Positions 29,957-40,894 of a DNA stretch of 64,000 bases are shown in pieces. A model generated the notes under the pieces. It saw only the letters and a list, made by a program, of their open reading frames with translations. It was not told where the DNA came from and did not search any database. This DNA comes from Occultella glacieicola. Lineage in GTDB: Bacteria > Actinomycetota > Actinomycetes > Actinomycetales > Beutenbergiaceae. The position numbers and the translations under genes were made by a program. The DNA is taken from NCBI RefSeq assembly GCF_004353825.1, contig NZ_SMNA01000006.1, forward strand, positions 310,001 through 374,000, read 5' to 3'. Positions within the stretch are counted from its first letter, which is position 1. Each line of letters opens with the position of its first letter.

Positions 29957-32184
29957 TCAGAAGGGTGCTGGTTCGTCGGGGTCGGGTGCGGTGCGGTAGC
30001 TGGGGCCTCCGGAGCTCGCGGGTCGGGTTCTGGGGAGTTCGGTGATGGTGCCGTCGGGGGTGCGCATGTAGACGTGACCGGTCGGGGTGCGCCAGAACCG
30101 GTTGCCATGCGCGTCGACCTCGTCCTCGAAGTCGCCGTGGGTCTTGAGCAGGTGGCAGCGGCGGCACTTGGGGTCGAGGTTGTCGTCGCTGGTGGGGCCG
30201 AGCGGGAACGGGATCCGGTGGTCGAGCTCGGTCATCCGGGCGGTGGCCGAGCACCCGGGCGCGGTGCAGTGTGGTTCGTTCTCCTTGATCCGGTCGGCCA
30301 TGTTTTGCGGCGGGATGTACCTGGTGGTGCCGTAGTCGATGACCCGGTCGGTGATCGGGTCGGTGACCAGGCGTCTCCACTGCCCGCCCGCGGCGAACGC
30401 GCGGGCGACGTCGGCCGGGATCGGCCCCAGCCCCTCGACGTCGGCGGGCAGGTCACCGCCCATCAGCGTCGACAGGGGCACCCGGATCAGGATCTGGGCG
30501 CGCCGGCCGCCGAGCACCCCGACCGGCCAGATCCGCGGCAGTCCTCGATCCGGAGCCGGGTTGAAGACCCTTGGGTCGGCCCCGGTGTCCGCTCCATGCC
30601 ACGAGCCATGGAACCCACCCGTCTCGCCGAACGAACTGGAGGGCACATCCGTCCCCTCGGTCCCACCGGCCGGGTCGGCCGCAGGCACACCCGACCCCTC
30701 GGACCCACCGGTGCGAAGCACATCCGCGCTCTCGGGTTGGTCTTCGCGGCTGCGGGCGGGATCGCGATCAGCTTCGCCCACGGTGGCGGGCGCGGAAGTC
30801 TCAGTCTCCGACCCGGGGCCAGACCCGGAGTCAGCGGTCGCAGTTCCGGCCGTGATCTGGCCGTGGTCACCTGCGGACGCCTCGTCCTGCTCGCCGGCGC
30901 GATCTGCGACATCGTCGCCATGCTGATGCTCATGGGCGCACGGGCCGGTCCGGAGTTGGAGGCTGAATCCGCTCAGATCGCCGACCTGGCCCACGCCGAG
31001 GCCGTGGGCGGCGAGATCGGCGAGCACGTCCGCACGCAACTGTTCCAGGGTCCGGAGATCACCAGCGGCCTTGGCCGAGGACGCCGCACTGTCCAGAAGG
31101 AGGTCCAGCGCGAGCGCATCGGCGGCCGGCCAGTACACCGAGTGAGCGGCCATCCCGTCCACGTCAACCCGGGCGCGACCCACGTACCGGCGGGTGCTGG
31201 CGCGAGCGGCCCGCTGGGTGAACAGGCTCGGGTCTGCCGCCGCGACCAGCGTCGCGACCTCCCGGGCGACCCGATGCCTCGTCCAGAGCACCGCCTTCGG
31301 CAACAGTTCGTCCTGAACCTTGAACGCGTCCTCGGCGTCCAACACCGAGACCGCGACCGCGATCACGTCAGCCTTACCGGCATCGATGTCACCGCGTGCC
31401 AGCGCGTCCCCGGTGGGGGCGGCGATCCCGCGGAGGAACTGACCCACCCGGACCAGCCGGTTGGCCTCCTGCTTCGAACACCCCACCTTCGGCGCGATCT
31501 CGTCGGCGGCAAGGGACTCACGGAACGCCGGTCCTTACCCACCGCACGAGGACGGGCCATGATCATCGTGTCCCGGGATGCCAACTCTGCGGCGACCTCC
31601 CGCACCCCCGCCGCGGCGGCGGATTCCAGACGGCGGTAGCAGGCCAGGGCGTCGACGAGTTCGCGGTCCGCCATCGCGGCCAGGTCCGCACGATCGAGCT
31701 CATCGACCAGGAACCCGTCCACAGGCCGCCTCGACAACGCCTGCGCGTCGACACGCGGCAGATCGTCCCCGCCCAGGTCCTCGGGCACCTCCGCGCGCAC
31801 CACGCGACGCCTCGAGCCATCCGGCCCAGCAGTGCCGGACTCGCCTGTGCTCCCGGGCTCGCCGGCCACGCGGGCCACGCGGGCCGTGGGCCGGATGGCG
31901 TCGACACCGCTATCGGGAGCGAGGTCGACGCGCGCATCGTCCGGAGGCAGCCCGTCGAACTGATCGACGAACTCCGCGTACCAGTCCTGGTACTCCATCT
32001 CCCGCTCGAACGCGGCCACCTCGGCCAGGTCCTCAGGGGACAACTGGGCCAACGCGGTCTCATCCAGCGCGGCGTAGTCGATCACCCGGACGGCCGCACT
32101 CGGCGAAACGACCGAGCTCGCACAGCACTCGCCCGACGGCGTCTTCGCCTGCGGGTGGCTCTCGCCCTCGGGTCGATCGAACAT
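29957..32184 (-). pseudogene. DUF222 / HNH endonuclease (13E12-repeat-like), split by a 1-nt frameshift near 31519
   Basis: N-half MFD... frame shifts into SLAADEIAPKVGCSKQEANRLV; EQLRAD, GPIPAD, RRLVTDP; C-terminal CTAPGC..LDH..NL..CRRCHLLKTH. Confidence 0.8.
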
Positions 32185-34507: not shown

Positions 34508-35998
34508 ATGTCGACGACGTCACCCGCGCAGACCACCCGCCTCCTCCCCCGCGCCGCCCCCGCCGACGCCGGCATCTCGGCCGCCGGGATCGGCGACTTC
34601 CTGGACGCGGTCGAGGACCGCGGGATCGAGTTGCACAGCCTGATGGTGGTGCACGGCGGCGCCGTGGCCGCCGAGGGCTGGTGGGCGCCCTACGCCCCGG
34701 AGCGACCGCACCTGCTGTACTCGCTCAGCAAGTCGTTCACCTCCACGGCGGCCGGGTTCGCGATCGCCGAGGGGCTGTTCTCCCTCGACGACCGGGTCGT
34801 CGACCTGTTGCCGGCGCACGTACCGGACGACGTCGATCCCGCGGTGGCGTCGCTCACCGTGCACCACGTGCTGTCGATGTCCACCGGGCACACGGCCGAC
34901 ACCCTCGGGACCGCCTACGACCTCGAACCCGGCGACCTCGTCCGCGGGTTCCTGCGTCAGCCGCCCCAGGACCAGGTCGGCTCGCGACACGTCTACAACA
35001 ACTCCTGCACCTACGTGGTCGCCACCCTGGTCCAGGAGCTCGGCGGCACCCACCTGACCGACTACCTGCGCCCCCGCCTGTTCGAGCCCCTCGGCATCAC
35101 CCCCGGGCACTGGGACGACGACGGCCACGGCCGGGCGATCGGCTTCTCCGGCCTGCACCTGACCACCGAGGCGATCGCCGCGTTCGGGCAACTGCTGCTC
35201 GCCGACGGCCGCTGGAACGGCGAGCAGGTGCTCCCGGAGGGCTGGGTGGCGCGGGCGACCCGGTCGCACGTGCGCACCGACTCCGACCCGGCGACCAACG
35301 TCGACTGGGCCCAGGGCTACGGCTACCAGTTCTGGATGGGGCGGCACGGCTTCCGTGGCGACGGCGCCTACGGGCAGTTCTGTGTGGTCGTGCCCGAGTC
35401 GGATCTGGTGCTGGCCACGACCTCGGTCACCGACGACATGCAGGGCATCCTCGACGCCGCGTGGGACCACCTGCTCCCAGCGGTCGGCACCGCGGACGCC
35501 GACCCGGCGGCCGGGGACCGGCTCGCCGAGCGGCTCGCGTCGCTCGCCCTGCCGGTGGTCGGGGCCGACCCGGGCGCCGCACCCACAGCGCCCATGGGGC
35601 CCGTATCGCCGGTCACGTTCGTGGTGCCCGACGGCGAAGGGCCGGGTCCGCTGCCGGCCGGCACCCGGGTGCAGGTCGCCCCGGCCGACGACGGCTGGCA
35701 GGCGAGCTTCACGTTCGACGGCGGCACCGTGCGCATCGACGGCGCGCCCTCGGTGTGGGTCGAGACCGAGGTGACGGCCGCCGTCGGGCACGACCGGAAC
35801 CCGACCCGGGGCCGCTCCCGGGAGGCCACCACGGTCCTCGCACGCGGCGGCTGGCGCGCCGACGGCACGTTCGAGGCGGACGTGCTGCTCGCGGAGATGC
35901 CGCACCGGTTCCGGCTGCGCGGCGCCGGCGGCGTGGCCACCGCCGCCTGGAACGCGGTGCCGCTGGCCGGGGAGCGGTTCGAGGCACACCTGCCCTGA
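34508..35998 (+). CDS. Serine hydrolase, class C beta-lactamase-like
   Basis: SLSK (SxxK), YNN, LFEPLGI, YGYQFW, GAYGQ. Confidence 0.88.
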   Translation: MSTTSPAQTTRLLPRAAPADAGISAAGIGDFLDAVEDRGIELHSLMVVHGGAVAAEGWWAPYAPERPHLLYSLSKSFTSTAAGFAIAEGLFSLDDRVVDLLPAHVPDDVDPAVASLTVHHVLSMSTGHTADTLGTAYDLEPGDLVRGFLRQPPQDQVGSRHVYNNSCTYVVATLVQELGGTHLTDYLRPRLFEPLGITPGHWDDDGHGRAIGFSGLHLTTEAIAAFGQLLLADGRWNGEQVLPEGWVARATRSHVRTDSDPATNVDWAQGYGYQFWMGRHGFRGDGAYGQFCVVVPESDLVLATTSVTDDMQGILDAAWDHLLPAVGTADADPAAGDRLAERLASLALPVVGADPGAAPTAPMGPVSPVTFVVPDGEGPGPLPAGTRVQVAPADDGWQASFTFDGGTVRIDGAPSVWVETEVTAAVGHDRNPTRGRSREATTVLARGGWRADGTFEADVLLAEMPHRFRLRGAGGVATAAWNAVPLAGERFEAHLP

Positions 35999-36190
35999 CC
36001 CGGGCCCGGTCCGGGGCGGAGGGGATCCGCAGCCCATTGCCGCCGCGTCCACGACCGAGGCGTCCGCTCACCCGGTCGGCGTCCGAATTCACCCGCGGAC
36101 CACCCGATCAGCACCCTCCTCGCCGGCCTCCTCGCCGGTGACCATGGAGGACGTCCGGCAATGACGCCGGGCCCGCACCGGGAGTGACAC

Positions 36191-38560
36191 ATGAGCGACG
36201 ACGACCAGGGGTCGGGCTGCTGCGGCGACGACGGCCCGCTGTACTACGACGAGCAGGGCGACCTGCTGGACCTGCCGGTGATCGGCCCGCTCCTGAGCGG
36301 ACTGCCGTTCTGGCCCAGGCCGGCCCCGGTGGACCCACGGATCCCGGTGGAGCCACGGATCCCGATCGACCCACGGATCCCGGTCGAACCACACATCCCG
36401 ATCCAGGTCCGGCGCCCGTGTTCGCTGCCGGTGCTGAACGGGTCGTGGCTGATCGAGTTCACCGCGTCCCGGCCCATACCCGTGATCGCCGCGCAACAGA
36501 TCCGTGGGCCGATGCGGATCGAGGTCCGGGACACCTCGCTGCGGGTCAGCGGCGACGTGTACGTCCGGCGCACCCCGATCCTCGGCACCCTGGAGTCGAT
36601 GCGGACGGCCTTCCAGGACGAGGCCGAATCGTATTCGCCGGGACCGCCGGACGCCGGCGGGCAGGACCAGGACCTGAACCCCGACCTGGTCCTGCGCGGC
36701 GTCAACGGGGCGCCGCTGTTCCCCTCCTACCCCCAGCTGCCGACGAACCAGTACTCCTGGTACTTCCGCTCCACCGGCGTCACCTACTCCGGTGGCACGC
36801 TCACCTTCGGCCTGCGCCGGCACGTCTGGAACCGGACCAGCCAGGACTTCGTCTCGACGGACTCCGGGACGATGACCCTGACCTGCACGCGCAGCATCCT
36901 CGCACGCGCCGAGGTCGCCACCATGTCCGGCACCGCGACGATCGGAGGGGTCGCGTACCACGTGAACGCGAGGAAGACGTCGAACTCCTACCGGGGCTGC
37001 GCCGTCGAGGTGGACGTCATGACCGGCCGGGACTGGCCCGCCTCGGCGCTCAACCACGGCGTCTCGCGGACGTTCCAGAACGTGTACGCGTCGGCCGGCT
37101 GGGACGTCCGGGTGCGGGTGGACCAGCTCGACATCCCCAGCGATGCGTCGCTGAGCATGGCCGAGCTGCAGACCCTGCTGACCAGCCACCGTGGCCCCGG
37201 CGCCGCCGACCCGTGGCGGCTCTGGCTGCTCATCGGCTCCGCGCAGGGTGGGCTCCTCGGCGTCATGTTCGACGACGACTCGGTCCCCCGGGAGGGCGCC
37301 GTCGGGTTCGCCGACGCGACGCTGAGCAACTCGAGCGTGATCGAGGCGGGCGCCCGCGGTCAGGCGATCAACGACGTACCGGCGGCGCTGCTGCGCACGA
37401 TGGTCCACGAGGCGGGGCATGCGCTCAACCTGTTCCACCCCAAGCACGACGTCCACGACCCGCCGATCGGCACCGAGATCATGAACCAGACCGGCGACGT
37501 CATCTCCTTCGCGTCCGTCTCGAACCCCTACCCGGGCAATGCCACGTTCGCGTTCGCCGTGCATGACCGCGACTCCCTCATCCACGCCCCCGACCCCCAG
37601 GTGCGCCCGGGCTGGCAGAACTTCGGGTGGGGGCACGGCAGCCTCTCCTCCGGTCTTCCGGTCCCGACCGACGCCTCCGGTCTGGGCGGCGGGGACGACG
37701 CCGAGGGCCTCCGTCTGGAACTGACCCTGCCGGGTGAGATCTACGTCGGCGAGTACGTGACCGCCGAGCTCACGCTCACCAACACCGGCGACGAGCCCCG
37801 TGAGGTGACGGCCAGGCTGAACCTCGCCGAGGGGTACCTGCGACTGCAGCACGTGCTGCCGGACGGCAGCCTCGACCAGGTGCGGGACGTCGTCGTCGCC
37901 TGCGGAACCCGCCCGACGGCGGTGCTCGCCCCGGGCGAGTCGCTGTCCGCCCGTATGCAACTCTTCTTCACCAGCGAGGGGATCACCTTCTCCCAGCCCG
38001 GCACCCATGTGGTCCGCGCCGAGTTCGACGTGGACCTGTTCAGCACGGCCCGCAGCCCGCGGGCCACCGTGTACGTGCGCACGGCCGCCACGGAGACCGA
38101 GGTGACCATCGCCGCCCAGACCCTCGACTCCGCCGTCGGGCGCGCGTTCGCCCTGGGTGACTTCGGCACGGACACCGCCGTTCGCGACCGGCTGGTCGCC
38201 GTGGCCGAGGCCCACCACGACGCCGACACCGGCGCCGCCGCGGCCCTGGTCCTGGCGAACTCCTTCGCCCGCGCGCACGTGGACCATCGGTCCGACGCCC
38301 GCGCGGCGGACGACGGCGGGCGGGCCGCTGCCCGGAAGGCGGCGCCCGAGGAGGCCAAGCACTTCCTCGACCTGGCCATGCAGGGCCGGTCGGCGGAGGA
38401 GATGGTGCGGCTCGCGGCGACCGTGGCGAGCCCCGTGGAGTCCGATGCCCCGGTGGTCACGGACGCCCTCGGCCGGGCGAAGCGGGCCCGCAAGGGCAAG
38501 GCTGACCTGGCTGCGGCGGAGGCCATCGTGGCGGACTTCGTGGCAGCATCACCCGCATGA
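36191..38560 (+). CDS. Uncharacterised cytoplasmic metzincin-like zinc protease with C-terminal Ig-like and helical domains
   Basis: HEAGHALNLFH at 37406-37438, downstream IMN Met-turn candidate; no signal peptide; GGAG RBS. Confidence 0.78.
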   Translation: MSDDDQGSGCCGDDGPLYYDEQGDLLDLPVIGPLLSGLPFWPRPAPVDPRIPVEPRIPIDPRIPVEPHIPIQVRRPCSLPVLNGSWLIEFTASRPIPVIAAQQIRGPMRIEVRDTSLRVSGDVYVRRTPILGTLESMRTAFQDEAESYSPGPPDAGGQDQDLNPDLVLRGVNGAPLFPSYPQLPTNQYSWYFRSTGVTYSGGTLTFGLRRHVWNRTSQDFVSTDSGTMTLTCTRSILARAEVATMSGTATIGGVAYHVNARKTSNSYRGCAVEVDVMTGRDWPASALNHGVSRTFQNVYASAGWDVRVRVDQLDIPSDASLSMAELQTLLTSHRGPGAADPWRLWLLIGSAQGGLLGVMFDDDSVPREGAVGFADATLSNSSVIEAGARGQAINDVPAALLRTMVHEAGHALNLFHPKHDVHDPPIGTEIMNQTGDVISFASVSNPYPGNATFAFAVHDRDSLIHAPDPQVRPGWQNFGWGHGSLSSGLPVPTDASGLGGGDDAEGLRLELTLPGEIYVGEYVTAELTLTNTGDEPREVTARLNLAEGYLRLQHVLPDGSLDQVRDVVVACGTRPTAVLAPGESLSARMQLFFTSEGITFSQPGTHVVRAEFDVDLFSTARSPRATVYVRTAATETEVTIAAQTLDSAVGRAFALGDFGTDTAVRDRLVAVAEAHHDADTGAAAALVLANSFARAHVDHRSDARAADDGGRAAARKAAPEEAKHFLDLAMQGRSAEEMVRLAATVASPVESDAPVVTDALGRAKRARKGKADLAAAEAIVADFVAASPA
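36326..36403 (+). repeat. In-frame 18-bp tandem repeat encoding P[VI][DE]P[RH]I x4
   Basis: ccggtggacccacggatc / ccggtggagccacggatc / ccgatcgacccacggatc / ccggtcgaaccacacatc. Confidence 0.85.
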
Positions 38561-39312
38561 GCTCGACGCTGACGCTGACCCTGACCGTGCCCGCGCGGTC
38601 GGGGTCGGACCAGGCCCTGCTCGGCGTGGTCGCCCTGACGAACACCGGCGCCGAGCCGGTCACCGTGAACGCCCGGCTGAACCTCGCCGACGGCGACCTG
38701 GTCATCGACGCGGCCGGGCCGGCGGGCACGCTCCGGGCCGGCTGGCCATGGCCGGCGGACAGCCTCCCCCGCGAGACGGAGCTCGGGCCGGGTCGAACGC
38801 TCGAGTCGGGCGTCCTGCTCCTGTGCACCGCGACGTCCGAGCCGCTGCTGCCCGACCCCGGCCCGTACACGCTCACCGTGTCCTACCGGGCGCACAGTGC
38901 CGGCAGTGCCGGTCGTGCCGGTGGTCCCGGGAGTGCCGGTGGCGGCGATCGATCCGGCGAGGTCACGGCCGAACCGGTCGCCCACACACGCACCCCCGCG
39001 ACCGGGCCGGCGGTGGCCGCGCTCCGGGACCGGGACGTGATCCAGTCACTGGTGTCCGCCTCGGTCCTCGGGCAGGCGGCCGACGGCCTCGCCGCCGTGG
39101 CCGAGCGGGGCGGCACGAACGCGGTGCTCGTGGCGCTGACCTCGGCGAGCACCGGGGTGGCCGACCTGACCGCCACCGCCGGCGACCCGGTGGCCGTGGC
39201 CGTCGCCGTGACCGCTGTGGTCCCGAGCACCGACCCACGCCGGGCCGACCTCGCCGACGAGTTCGCCGGCGACCCCCGCGCCACCGCGATCCTCGCGGAC
39301 CTGCCCCACTGA
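38557..39312 (+). CDS. Hypothetical protein paralogous to the C-terminal third of the upstream metalloprotease
   Basis: LTNTGAEPVTVNARLNLADG vs LTNTGDEPREVTARLNLAEG; ATGA overlap with the upstream stop. Confidence 0.78.
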   Translation: MSSTLTLTLTVPARSGSDQALLGVVALTNTGAEPVTVNARLNLADGDLVIDAAGPAGTLRAGWPWPADSLPRETELGPGRTLESGVLLLCTATSEPLLPDPGPYTLTVSYRAHSAGSAGRAGGPGSAGGGDRSGEVTAEPVAHTRTPATGPAVAALRDRDVIQSLVSASVLGQAADGLAAVAERGGTNAVLVALTSASTGVADLTATAGDPVAVAVAVTAVVPSTDPRRADLADEFAGDPRATAILADLPH

Positions 39313-39379
39313 ACCCGGCATCGTTCTCCGTCGCGCGACGGACGCGGCCGTGGTGGGCGGCCGGATAACCTCGGTAGTC

Positions 39380-40894
39380 ATGTTCACCCCGTCGAGTTCG
39401 CCGACCGCGGGCCCCGGGCCGGCCGACGCCGCCGGGGCCGACGGGCAGGTCCGGGCCGCCTGGTCCACCCGCCTGTTCGCCTGGCTGAACGACCCCGGGG
39501 AGCCGCTCTGGGAGCGACCCGGCCCCTCCCGGGACCAGCAGCGCCGCGACATCGTCGGCGCCCTCGCGTTCGTCCTGGTGGGCCTCGGCATGACGGTCGC
39601 GACGAAGTCGTTCGGCATGGTGAACGAGGCGGAGGCCACCTGGCGCGCGTTCGTCGCCGTTGCCGCGATGATCGCCCCGTTGGCCATCCGTAGGCGTTTT
39701 CCGCTGATCGCGCTGCTGATCTCGTCGGTGCTGTTCCTGACGCTCAGCTACCTCAGCCCCGAGGCCAGCGTCCAGGCCCCCTTCCAGGTGGCGTACTTCG
39801 CCACCCTCTATGCGGCCGTGGCGTGGGCGCGGGACCGGCGACTCCTCTGGATCTCCGTGGCGCTGGTGCTGCTCGAGATGGCGGCCTGGATCGTCATCTC
39901 GTTCACCATCTCCCGGGGCATGTTCGCGGAGTCCTTCGGGGACGGCGTCGGCCCGCTCGAACCGGTCGTCGCCTACGGGCTGTACACGGCCGTGCTGAAC
40001 CTTGCGTACTTCGGCGGCGCCATCCTCGTGGGCCGCAACTCCTGGCGGACCGCCCTGCACCGGTCCCGGCTCGCCGAGCAGGCGGAACGGATCCGGGCGC
40101 AGTCCGACGAGCTCGCCCGCCGCGCCGTCGTGGACGAGCGGCTGCGGATCGCCCGCGAACTGCACGACGTGGTGGCCCACCACATCTCGGTCATCGGGAT
40201 CCAGGCCGGCGCCGCTCGGCGGGTGCTGACCCGATCACCGCAGTCGGCCGAAGGGGCGATGCGCACCATCGAGGGCGCCAGCCGCGAAGCCGTGGGTGAG
40301 ATGCGGTCCCTGCTCGGGGTGCTGCGCAGCGAGACGGAGACCGGCCGCCCGGGTGACTCGGGTGACTCGCGCGCGCCCGAGCCCGGGCTCGCGGACCTGG
40401 ACGGGTTGGCCGAGCGGCACCGCCGTCGCGGTCTGCAGGTGACCCTGACCCGGGTGGAGGCCGCGCCGGGCGACCTGGACCGGGTGCCGCCGGCGCTCGG
40501 GCTGTCCGTGTACCGCTGCGTCCAGGAGTCCCTGACGAACGTGGCCCGGCACTCCACCGCGGGCTCCGCGTCTGTCACGCTCAGGACCGGGACCGCGGCG
40601 GCCGGGTCCGAAGTCGGCGATGGCGATGCCTCCGACGCGCCGGCCGGCCCGTTCGTGGAGGTCGAGGTGCTCGACGACGGACAGCCGCGTGGCGGTACGT
40701 CCGGGACCGGGTACGGTCTTCGCGGGGTGAGCGAACGGGTCTCGCTGCACGGCGGCCAGGCCGAGATCGGCCCACGCCGGACCGGCTCGGGCTGGCGGGT
40801 CCGGGCCCGCTTCCACCTCCGCGACGCCGGCCCGCACCCGAGGCCGGAACCAGGCACCGACACGAACACCGAGAGCGAGCTCAAGGCCCGATGA
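39380..40894 (+). CDS. Membrane sensor histidine kinase (HisKA_3 type)
   Basis: Several TM helices; ERLRIARELHDVVAH, QESLTNVARH, DDG, GYGLRG. Confidence 0.92.
   Translation: MFTPSSSPTAGPGPADAAGADGQVRAAWSTRLFAWLNDPGEPLWERPGPSRDQQRRDIVGALAFVLVGLGMTVATKSFGMVNEAEATWRAFVAVAAMIAPLAIRRRFPLIALLISSVLFLTLSYLSPEASVQAPFQVAYFATLYAAVAWARDRRLLWISVALVLLEMAAWIVISFTISRGMFAESFGDGVGPLEPVVAYGLYTAVLNLAYFGGAILVGRNSWRTALHRSRLAEQAERIRAQSDELARRAVVDERLRIARELHDVVAHHISVIGIQAGAARRVLTRSPQSAEGAMRTIEGASREAVGEMRSLLGVLRSETETGRPGDSGDSRAPEPGLADLDGLAERHRRRGLQVTLTRVEAAPGDLDRVPPALGLSVYRCVQESLTNVARHSTAGSASVTLRTGTAAAGSEVGDGDASDAPAGPFVEVEVLDDGQPRGGTSGTGYGLRGVSERVSLHGGQAEIGPRRTGSGWRVRARFHLRDAGPHPRPEPGTDTNTESELKAR

Follow-up and report, generated by a model that had tools for sequence, protein, structure and literature searches.

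A metzincin-type protease and a paralogue of its own C-terminal region, encoded as a conserved gene pair, in Occultella glacieicola

Metzincin zymogens are kept inactive by a cysteine switch, carried in a Cys-Gly motif, or by an aspartate switch, and the two can be alternatives within families; the latency switches described in the available part of the source sit on N-terminal pro-segments (PMC6949598). Pairs of proteases and inhibitors encoded together are also established, for example with emfourin (PMC9505478) and the potempins (PMC9890683). Protealysin, an intracellularly made M4 metalloprotease, shares one operon with emfourin, its 1:1 active-site inhibitor, and a toxin/immunity logic has been proposed (PMC9505478). 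In the accessible text of these two papers, neither emfourin nor the potempins are described as copies of their enzymes. Here we analyse a gene pair from Occultella glacieicola (RefSeq assembly GCF_004353825.1, contig NZ_SMNA01000006.1), located in a window of 64,000 nucleotides (positions 310,001 to 374,000 of the forward strand) to which all coordinates below refer. The product of the first gene is predicted to be a zinc endopeptidase with a metzincin fold, an assignment on which motif, Met-turn and fold model agree. The second encodes a paralogue of the C-terminal region of this protease, in which an invariant aspartate takes the place of an invariant cysteine.

The protease resembles the unicellular pappalysins (mirolysin and ulilysin; M43) and other zymogens with a Cys or Asp switch in having a residue other than Gly at position 8 of its zinc motif and an invariant cysteine in Cys-Gly; Cys and Asp alternate as zinc blockers among those zymogens (PMC6949598) and would do so here. 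In contrast to the short N-terminal pro-segments of these secreted enzymes, the cysteine lies here in an immunoglobulin (Ig)-like domain and the Asp form in a second gene. The signal peptide of pappalysin zymogens was likewise not found: a crude screen for N-terminal hydrophobicity and twin-arginine (Tat) signals, not equivalent to SignalP, flagged one of 189 homologs, and the start of this one is probably mis-set. With protealysin-emfourin the locus shares a small gene directly downstream of a metalloprotease lacking a signal peptide, at 58 of the 75 loci compared, whereas the protease clan is another one and emfourin is unrelated to its enzyme. By analogy, the pair would work like protealysin-emfourin or the potempin pairs without belonging to them. 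None of 56 partners matches the Emfourin family (PF20242), the hhalign probability is 1.1, and no such gene was found in the O. glacieicola genome.

An earlier note on this DNA, made by eye, recognised no named family for the pair, and this is borne out by Pfam (no family at E up to 1 for either protein), PADLOC and PHROGs (no matches); NCBIfam returned one match far below its cut-off (LegP, 12.8 bits against 300). No description of the family, or of a metzincin with a C-terminal cysteine switch and a paralogous inhibitor, was found in the accessible parts of open-licence PubMed Central and bioRxiv texts; MEROPS or subscription journals could name the family. We consider the pair a real, conserved module whose protease represents a new family within a known clan; the regulatory design proposed for it is unusual.

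The protease, its paralogue and a shared cysteine/aspartate column

The two open reading frames (ORFs), the ATGA overlap that joins the protease stop to the partner start and the motif coordinates (Table 1) are all as first reported. Third-position GC is gene-like in both ORFs (0.94 for the protease and 0.93 for the partner), and the partner is probably translationally coupled to the protease. A likeness between the partner and the C-terminal region of the protease had been noticed by eye, and it proves to be real paralogy. BLASTP aligns the two proteins with 44% identity over 55 residues (E 3e-8), and profile comparison with hhalign is significant both for the protease C-terminal region against the partner (probability 98.9, E 3.4e-17) and in a second comparison (probability 99.7, E 3.1e-25 over 213 columns). 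Residues 1-251 of the partner, as modelled in the Atlas, can be superposed on a protease family of 752 residues with a template modelling (TM) score of 0.81. An NLxEGD motif is kept in both proteins, while the partner matches neither the barrel nor the catalytic profile of the protease. Two Atlas clusters, one of 420 residues from Bacillota (648 members; TM 0.70) and one of 737 residues with an OmpA domain (TM 0.67), share the Ig plus helical fold and may be further architectures of this module.

The correspondence between Cys571 of the protease and Asp68 of the partner had been overlooked. In a joint alignment, the two residues (59/59 and 56/56) share one column. The counts given for these two residues in Table 1 were made over all loci with no rows dropped, and they are not circular because the loci were picked by catalytic-domain patterns. 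Although the partners average only 38% identity, Asp68 is one of two invariant columns in their alignment, and it is also kept in a diverged partner (locus L063) and in a haloarchaeal copy. In a wider alignment of 148 rows, the window of residues 569-572 contains Cys in 130 rows, Asp only in 14 and neither in 4; for the 46 most distant rows these numbers are 29, 13 and 4. The rows with Asp only carry little weight since Asp is a common residue. No other window of the Ig domain exceeds 3.4% Cys in the 148 rows and, by eye, five of six very distant proteases keep the equivalent of Cys571. This cysteine belongs to the folded Ig domain, 155 residues beyond the zinc motif. It is present in 44 rows lacking Cys270, 42 lacking Cys232 and 28 lacking Cys77; no other Cys column tracks it, so it appears to be unpaired.

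The AlphaFold2 model of the protease (59 sequences; mean predicted local distance difference test (pLDDT) 77.7, predicted TM score (pTM) 0.70) divides into four parts, which were compared with 48,161 solved chains using VIA-align; the helical region was barely probed in this way. The catalytic part (model residues 265-472) matches ADAM8 (Z 10.2, root mean square deviation (rmsd) 3.6 over 164 residues), followed by ADAM10 (10.2), TACE (ADAM17; 10.0), archaemetzincin (9.8) and many more metzincins with Z of 8-10. This supports the metzincin assignment originally made from the zinc motif HExxHxxxxxH and the Met-turn. Both of these, as well as the fold (Z 9.8-10.2 over about 164 residues), are shared with the ADAM/reprolysin (M12B) and archaemetzincin (M54) families. 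The protease differs from both in its 13-20% identity, in lacking a signal peptide and in carrying a barrel before, and Ig and helical regions after, the catalytic domain. An ADAM-type pro-domain was not detected at the N-terminus. Archaemetzincins have a second zinc site of four cysteines after the zinc motif; this protease has no Cys between residues 271 and 570.

His406, Glu407, His410, Asn413 and His416 are each kept in all 73 locus ORFs that cover the motif (another ORF, with a broken frame, comprises a C-terminal fragment), and Ile430-Met431-Asn432 starts 14 residues past His416. The Asn at motif position 8 had been singled out as an oddity. It is in fact ordinary: of 92 rows from the wide family, 62 have Asn and 18 have Gly at this position, which is occupied by Asp in mirolysin (PMC6949598). 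Asp361, Arg367, His465 and Asp468 are also invariant. Distant homologs match Pfam M10, M12B, M43 and M66 weakly, mostly below cut-off. A search of PDB sequences with the protease alignment gave no matches, and one with alignment A4 gave at best a glucosidase Ig domain (E 0.005), then metzincin matches restricted to the motif. Foldseek, which had been suggested for both proteins, was uninformative with the full protease model and the partner, mostly returning Ig domains of GH3 glucosidases; it was the VIA-align comparison that provided the metzincin match.

Both Ig domains have the same top two fold matches, the Bacillus subtilis protein IPI (BsuPI, PF12690) and the N-terminal domain of the AsaP1 precursor, a segment that we take to be an inhibitory propeptide. 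The protease domain matches IPI (3isy) with Z 9.8 (rmsd 3.0, 110 residues aligned) and residues 23-187 of AsaP1 (2x3a) with Z 9.4 (rmsd 4.0, 121 aligned). For the partner, whose own model is of high quality (pLDDT 92.5, pTM 0.89), the values are Z 8.0 for IPI and 7.5 for AsaP1 (both rmsd 3.1 with 114 aligned), and the next match has 6.7. Against this likeness, Z is only 7.5-9.8 overall, identity is 12-22% and the AsaP1 domain is N-terminal. None of 56 partners matches PF12690 at E up to 0.05, the best PDB sequence match with the partner alignment has an E of 1, and the position of the inhibitory residue of AsaP1 could not be mapped onto Cys571.

Table 1. Features of the protease-partner locus in window coordinates
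Feature	Coordinates	Strand	Basis or remark
789-aa metzincin-type protease gene (P0001)	36191..38560	+	without signal peptide
N-terminal tail (aa 1-70) with Cys10-Cys11-Gly12, the conserved [FY]DExG motif and, after it, Pro-rich repeats	36191..36400	+	alignment, model
Eight-stranded beta-barrel (aa 75-265), avidin/Cap15-like	36413..36985	+	VIA-align; S120, D122, Y124 invariant
Metzincin catalytic domain (aa 266-472)	36986..37606	+	VIA-align fold match
Zinc motif H406-E407-x-x-H410-x-x-N413-x-x-H416 (HEAGHALNLFH, residues 406-416)	37406..37438	+	
Met431, Met-turn	37481..37483	+	73/73 locus ORFs; 90/92 wide-family rows
Linker modelled with low confidence (aa 473-504), possible cleavage site for activation	37607..37702	+	pLDDT <50 at 477-492
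Ig-like domain (aa 505-632), putative latency domain of the protease	37703..38086	+	VIA-align
Cys571 in Cys-Gly motif, proposed zinc-blocking cysteine switch	37901..37903	+	Cys in 74/74 locus proteases
C-terminal helical region (aa 633-789), common to protease and partner	38087..38560	+	
251-aa partner gene (P0002): Ig-like domain (aa 1-147) and helical region, without catalytic domain	38557..39312	+	
Asp68 of partner, aligned with Cys571, proposed aspartate switch	38758..38760	+	Asp in 57/57 locus partners

Linkage, spread and origin of the partner

Of the 75 GTDB loci, five end too near a contig edge, leaving 70 that are informative. The partner lies directly downstream in 57 and, in diverged form, in L063 (probability 96.5). 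It is absent from 12 of the 70. The idea of a two-gene module therefore stands as regards conserved linkage, homologs usually having the partner, but not as regards an obligatory partner. A 4-base overlap occurs in 18 of the 57 loci, as judged with automatic start picking. Loci with a partner span Actinomycetota, Acidobacteriota and Alphaproteobacteria, and the wider protease family is found in Actinomycetota, Acidobacteriota, Pseudomonadota, Planctomycetota and one haloarchaeon. The pair is also present on a plasmid of Halocatena salina, where the frame of each gene is broken. Loci L041, L072 and L130 have frame breaks in the protease gene, in the last case in the partner as well, which may reflect decay or sequencing errors.

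A FastTree tree of the region common to both proteins (168 rows, including 46 of the 57 locus partners; homologs from the word search were left out) places 47 partners on one side of a single branch (Shimodaira-Hasegawa support 99). The partner thus forms one clade and, on these sequences, arose once. Its tree roughly mirrors that of the protease. The identity matrices of protease and partner also correlate (Spearman 0.87, 46 pairs); this is explained by shared ancestry and we do not count it as coevolution. The partner-less loci L039/L043 and L045/L046 fall among partner-bearing branches, which suggests partner loss.

No partner was found elsewhere in the 10 genomes searched, where only the protease C-terminal region matched; this search also missed the diverged L063 partner. 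Neither did 36 genomes of the family or 401 of the phylum contain an orphan partner, with six candidates scored per genome in the phylum search. The distribution is patchy: the protease occurs in five of the 36 family genomes (four from Occultella, each of which has both genes, and one with only a distant protease) and in at least six of the 401 phylum genomes. A word-based search recovered 311 protease relatives among 8,000 candidates scored, and a profile search with an E limit of 0.001 gave 1,736 clusters (clustered at 50% identity), many of them sharing the overall protease layout.

Another gene, of about 130 codons, adjoins the protease in eight of the 12 partner-less loci (L049 (3402-3779), L059, L061, L066, L067, L069, L070 and L075; three phyla) and in none of the 58 partner loci. 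This is the pattern expected if the slot holds an interchangeable inhibitor, and the gene is a candidate second inhibitor family. It lies on the opposite strand in four of the eight loci, and the loci are not independent. Its product carries CxxxC, G.PD..D.G and invariant Asp residues, has 73 relatives and belongs to no family; the PDB provided no match. A relation to emfourin was considered but not supported (hhalign E 0.074; among 43 sequences, four weak DUF6438 matches and one weak Emfourin match).

Other small ORFs accompany distant proteases. Two of these proteases are directly followed by a stand-alone Ig-like ORF of about 170-180 codons (L086:5287-5799(-) and L087:8093-8638(+)), which does not match the partner profile (probability 0.7) and was not accepted as a partner. 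At two others a similar-looking small ORF lies just upstream (L085:5663-5944 and L088:5205-5591), with no Pfam family over cut-off. In Caballeronia, a distant protease is followed by an ORF of about 130 codons without a Pfam match (L131:5959-6357), possibly a third kind of downstream partner.

Proposed mechanism and alternatives

With an invariant Cys in the tail of the protease and an invariant Asp in the copy, the tail is likely to keep the enzyme off and the copy is likely to be a second inhibitor. We propose that the C-terminal Ig-like domain folds back over the catalytic zinc, where Cys571 would be the fourth ligand; the cysteine switch would then sit C-terminally and not on an N-terminal pro-segment. 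Activation could occur by a cut in the flexible 473-504 linker, by thiol oxidation or by both, most likely after release from the cell. The partner would plug the freed catalytic domain by means of an oxidation-proof aspartate and so protect the producer, as emfourin would for protealysin. On this scheme the latency domain was duplicated and its Cys changed to Asp, giving a free aspartate-switch inhibitor. We give a block in cis by Cys571, opened by a cut or by oxidation, together with inhibition in trans by the Asp-bearing partner, an even chance of being correct. Among the roles suggested earlier for the truncated paralogue (inhibitor, adaptor or subunit of a hetero-oligomer) we favour that of inhibitor.

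The top two fold matches of the partner, one a protease inhibitor and the other the N-terminal part of a zinc protease precursor, are counted in favour of this reading. Several points weigh on the other side. These matches are middling, since ordinary Ig look-alikes also reach Z values of 7.5-9.8, and in Foldseek the Ig domains of GH3 glucosidases came first. IPI itself inhibits subtilisins, is ineffective on metallopeptidases and has been removed from MEROPS, according to the part of PMC3901451 available. Proximity of Cys571 and Asp68 to the zinc is a prediction made from sequence. Coevolution analysis (282 rows, effective number of sequences (Neff) 160, 588 columns) recovered plausible pairs within domains and is too shallow to place the Cys571 loop; inter-domain pairs, Ala466-Val569 and Ala454-Val567 among them, are at noise level. 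The helical region has been duplicated too, which would be needless for a simple plug. Loci L039, L043, L045 and L046 lack both the partner and the gene of about 130 codons, and no partner turned up elsewhere in these four genomes, so a genome can have the enzyme by itself. The gene of about 130 codons could not be tied to emfourin. Finally, the N-terminal Cys-Cys-Gly is a competing cysteine-switch candidate of the conventional kind.

The earlier description of the protease as cytoplasmic holds only in the sense that there is no signal peptide (the highest 19-residue hydropathy is 1.2 for the protease and 1.7 for the partner). Cys288 and Cys449 (37052-37054 and 37535-37537; neither is Cys in the O. 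glacieicola protease) occur together in 45 of 253 rows and never singly. This perfect co-occurrence is disulfide-like and hints that some family members act outside the cell or in another oxidising place. Cys77, Cys232 and Cys270 also tend to co-occur, with kinship as a confounding factor.

More tentatively, and with less than an even chance, the mechanism could extend to the superfamily of 1,736 clusters. Its members would be latent owing to a cysteine switch in the C-terminal Ig domain, to be opened by oxidation or cleavage outside the cell; one branch would have duplicated the domain once and, by the change of Cys to Asp, obtained a redox-proof immunity protein, while other branches would have unrelated inhibitors in the same slot. 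If the proposals are correct, a switch at the C-terminus and a natural Cys/Asp pair, acting in cis and in trans, would be found on one scaffold, and the locus would directly illustrate the conversion of a pro-domain into an inhibitor gene. The hypothetical proteins of a widespread family would gain a named function, a second candidate inhibitor family would be indicated, and at least two metalloprotease inhibitor families would be new. Should the reading fail, the metzincin family would still be new and its paralogous partner conserved.

The best of the alternatives, which we nevertheless think unlikely, is that the partner serves as an adaptor or as a subunit without catalytic function. The Ig and helical regions would then form a module for oligomerisation or substrate recruitment, the partner would build a hetero-oligomer with the C-terminal region of the protease, and the Cys and Asp would be structural or ligands of a second metal. 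This would account for the duplication of the entire unit, rather than of the loop alone, and for an NLxEGD motif retained on both sides; the invariant Asp361, Arg367, His465 and Asp468 could make another site, and a 4-base overlap as frequent as that seen here suggests a fixed stoichiometry. It leaves unexplained, however, the clean swap of Cys to Asp held throughout each class, and it does not sit well with the absence of the partner from 12 of 70 informative loci, eight of which have an unrelated protein instead.

It is distinctly improbable that the partner turns the enzyme on, as an activator that displaces the Cys-bearing domain of the protease or as a folding chaperone. A paralogue could compete for the same docking surface, and AsaP1-type propeptides act as chaperones. 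Nevertheless, an invariant Asp that is able to bind zinc and sits at the position of the block would suit a plug better than a release factor, and proteases without a partner keep their catalytic residues intact.

We attach a lower probability still to latency through the N-terminal Cys-Cys-Gly, in which case the C-terminal region and the partner would bind substrates or act as decoy substrates within an intracellular, regulated protease. The Cys-Gly pro-segments of pappalysins are indeed N-terminal (PMC6949598), 94 of 120 homologs have a Cys no more than 16 residues upstream of their [FY]DExG motif, and the model gives residues 11-30 a pLDDT of 76-83. Yet this Cys is missing from the other 26, including several close homologs, and its distance from the motif is variable (7-16 residues), whereas Cys571 is invariant; a barrel region of 230 residues also separates the N-terminal Cys from the catalytic domain.

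Least probable is anti-phage defence by abortive infection, with the protease being freed from its partner on a signal from the phage: the patchy spread and the top fold match of the barrel (Cap15, a receptor of cyclic oligonucleotide-based anti-phage signalling systems (CBASS)) would fit, but there is no PADLOC, PHROG or phage match (five plasmid-collection records matched), GC content equals that of the surroundings, the Cap15 match is generic, and no defence genes are among the recurring neighbours shown, which beyond close kin are only generic ABC-transporter ATPases (ORFs of at least 90 codons, largest clusters inspected). A role in phage defence finds no support.

Remaining features of the protease and its surroundings

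The beta-rich (Ig-like) and the helical C-terminal regions had been noted previously, whereas the N-terminal beta-barrel had been overlooked. Its best match is Cap15 (7n34; Z 10.6, rmsd 2.5, 103 residues aligned), which is considered generic because designed barrels score alike (Z 10.4-10.5). The barrel residues G106, R109, S120-G121-D122-x-Y124, Y188 and Y191 are invariant across the superfamily, which suggests a binding site or interface. The tail that precedes the barrel is predicted to be disordered (pLDDT below 50 at residues 1-12 and 35-70) and includes the short Pro-rich repeats VDPRIP, VEPRIP, IDPRIP and VEPHIP (36329-36403). Fused forms of the protease (P0134, P0256 and P0212) carry N-terminal ATLF-like zinc-peptidase, M15 peptidase and C-terminal ferritin-like domains.

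There is no second copy of either gene in the same genome, and the nearest named relatives are from Occultella (75-76% protein identity). No promoter or terminator consensus was found in 35900-39500. The flanking genes, a beta-lactamase-family hydrolase upstream and a histidine kinase downstream, are unrelated to the pair. In Occultella aeris (L001:8388-10529) the partner ORF continues in frame into the downstream histidine-kinase gene to give 714 residues, either a natural fusion or an assembly error. Elsewhere in the window, an ORF on the reverse strand (29957-31486(-)) bears a C-terminal HNH-like motif, seen by eye, and is presumably of the DUF222/HNH type.

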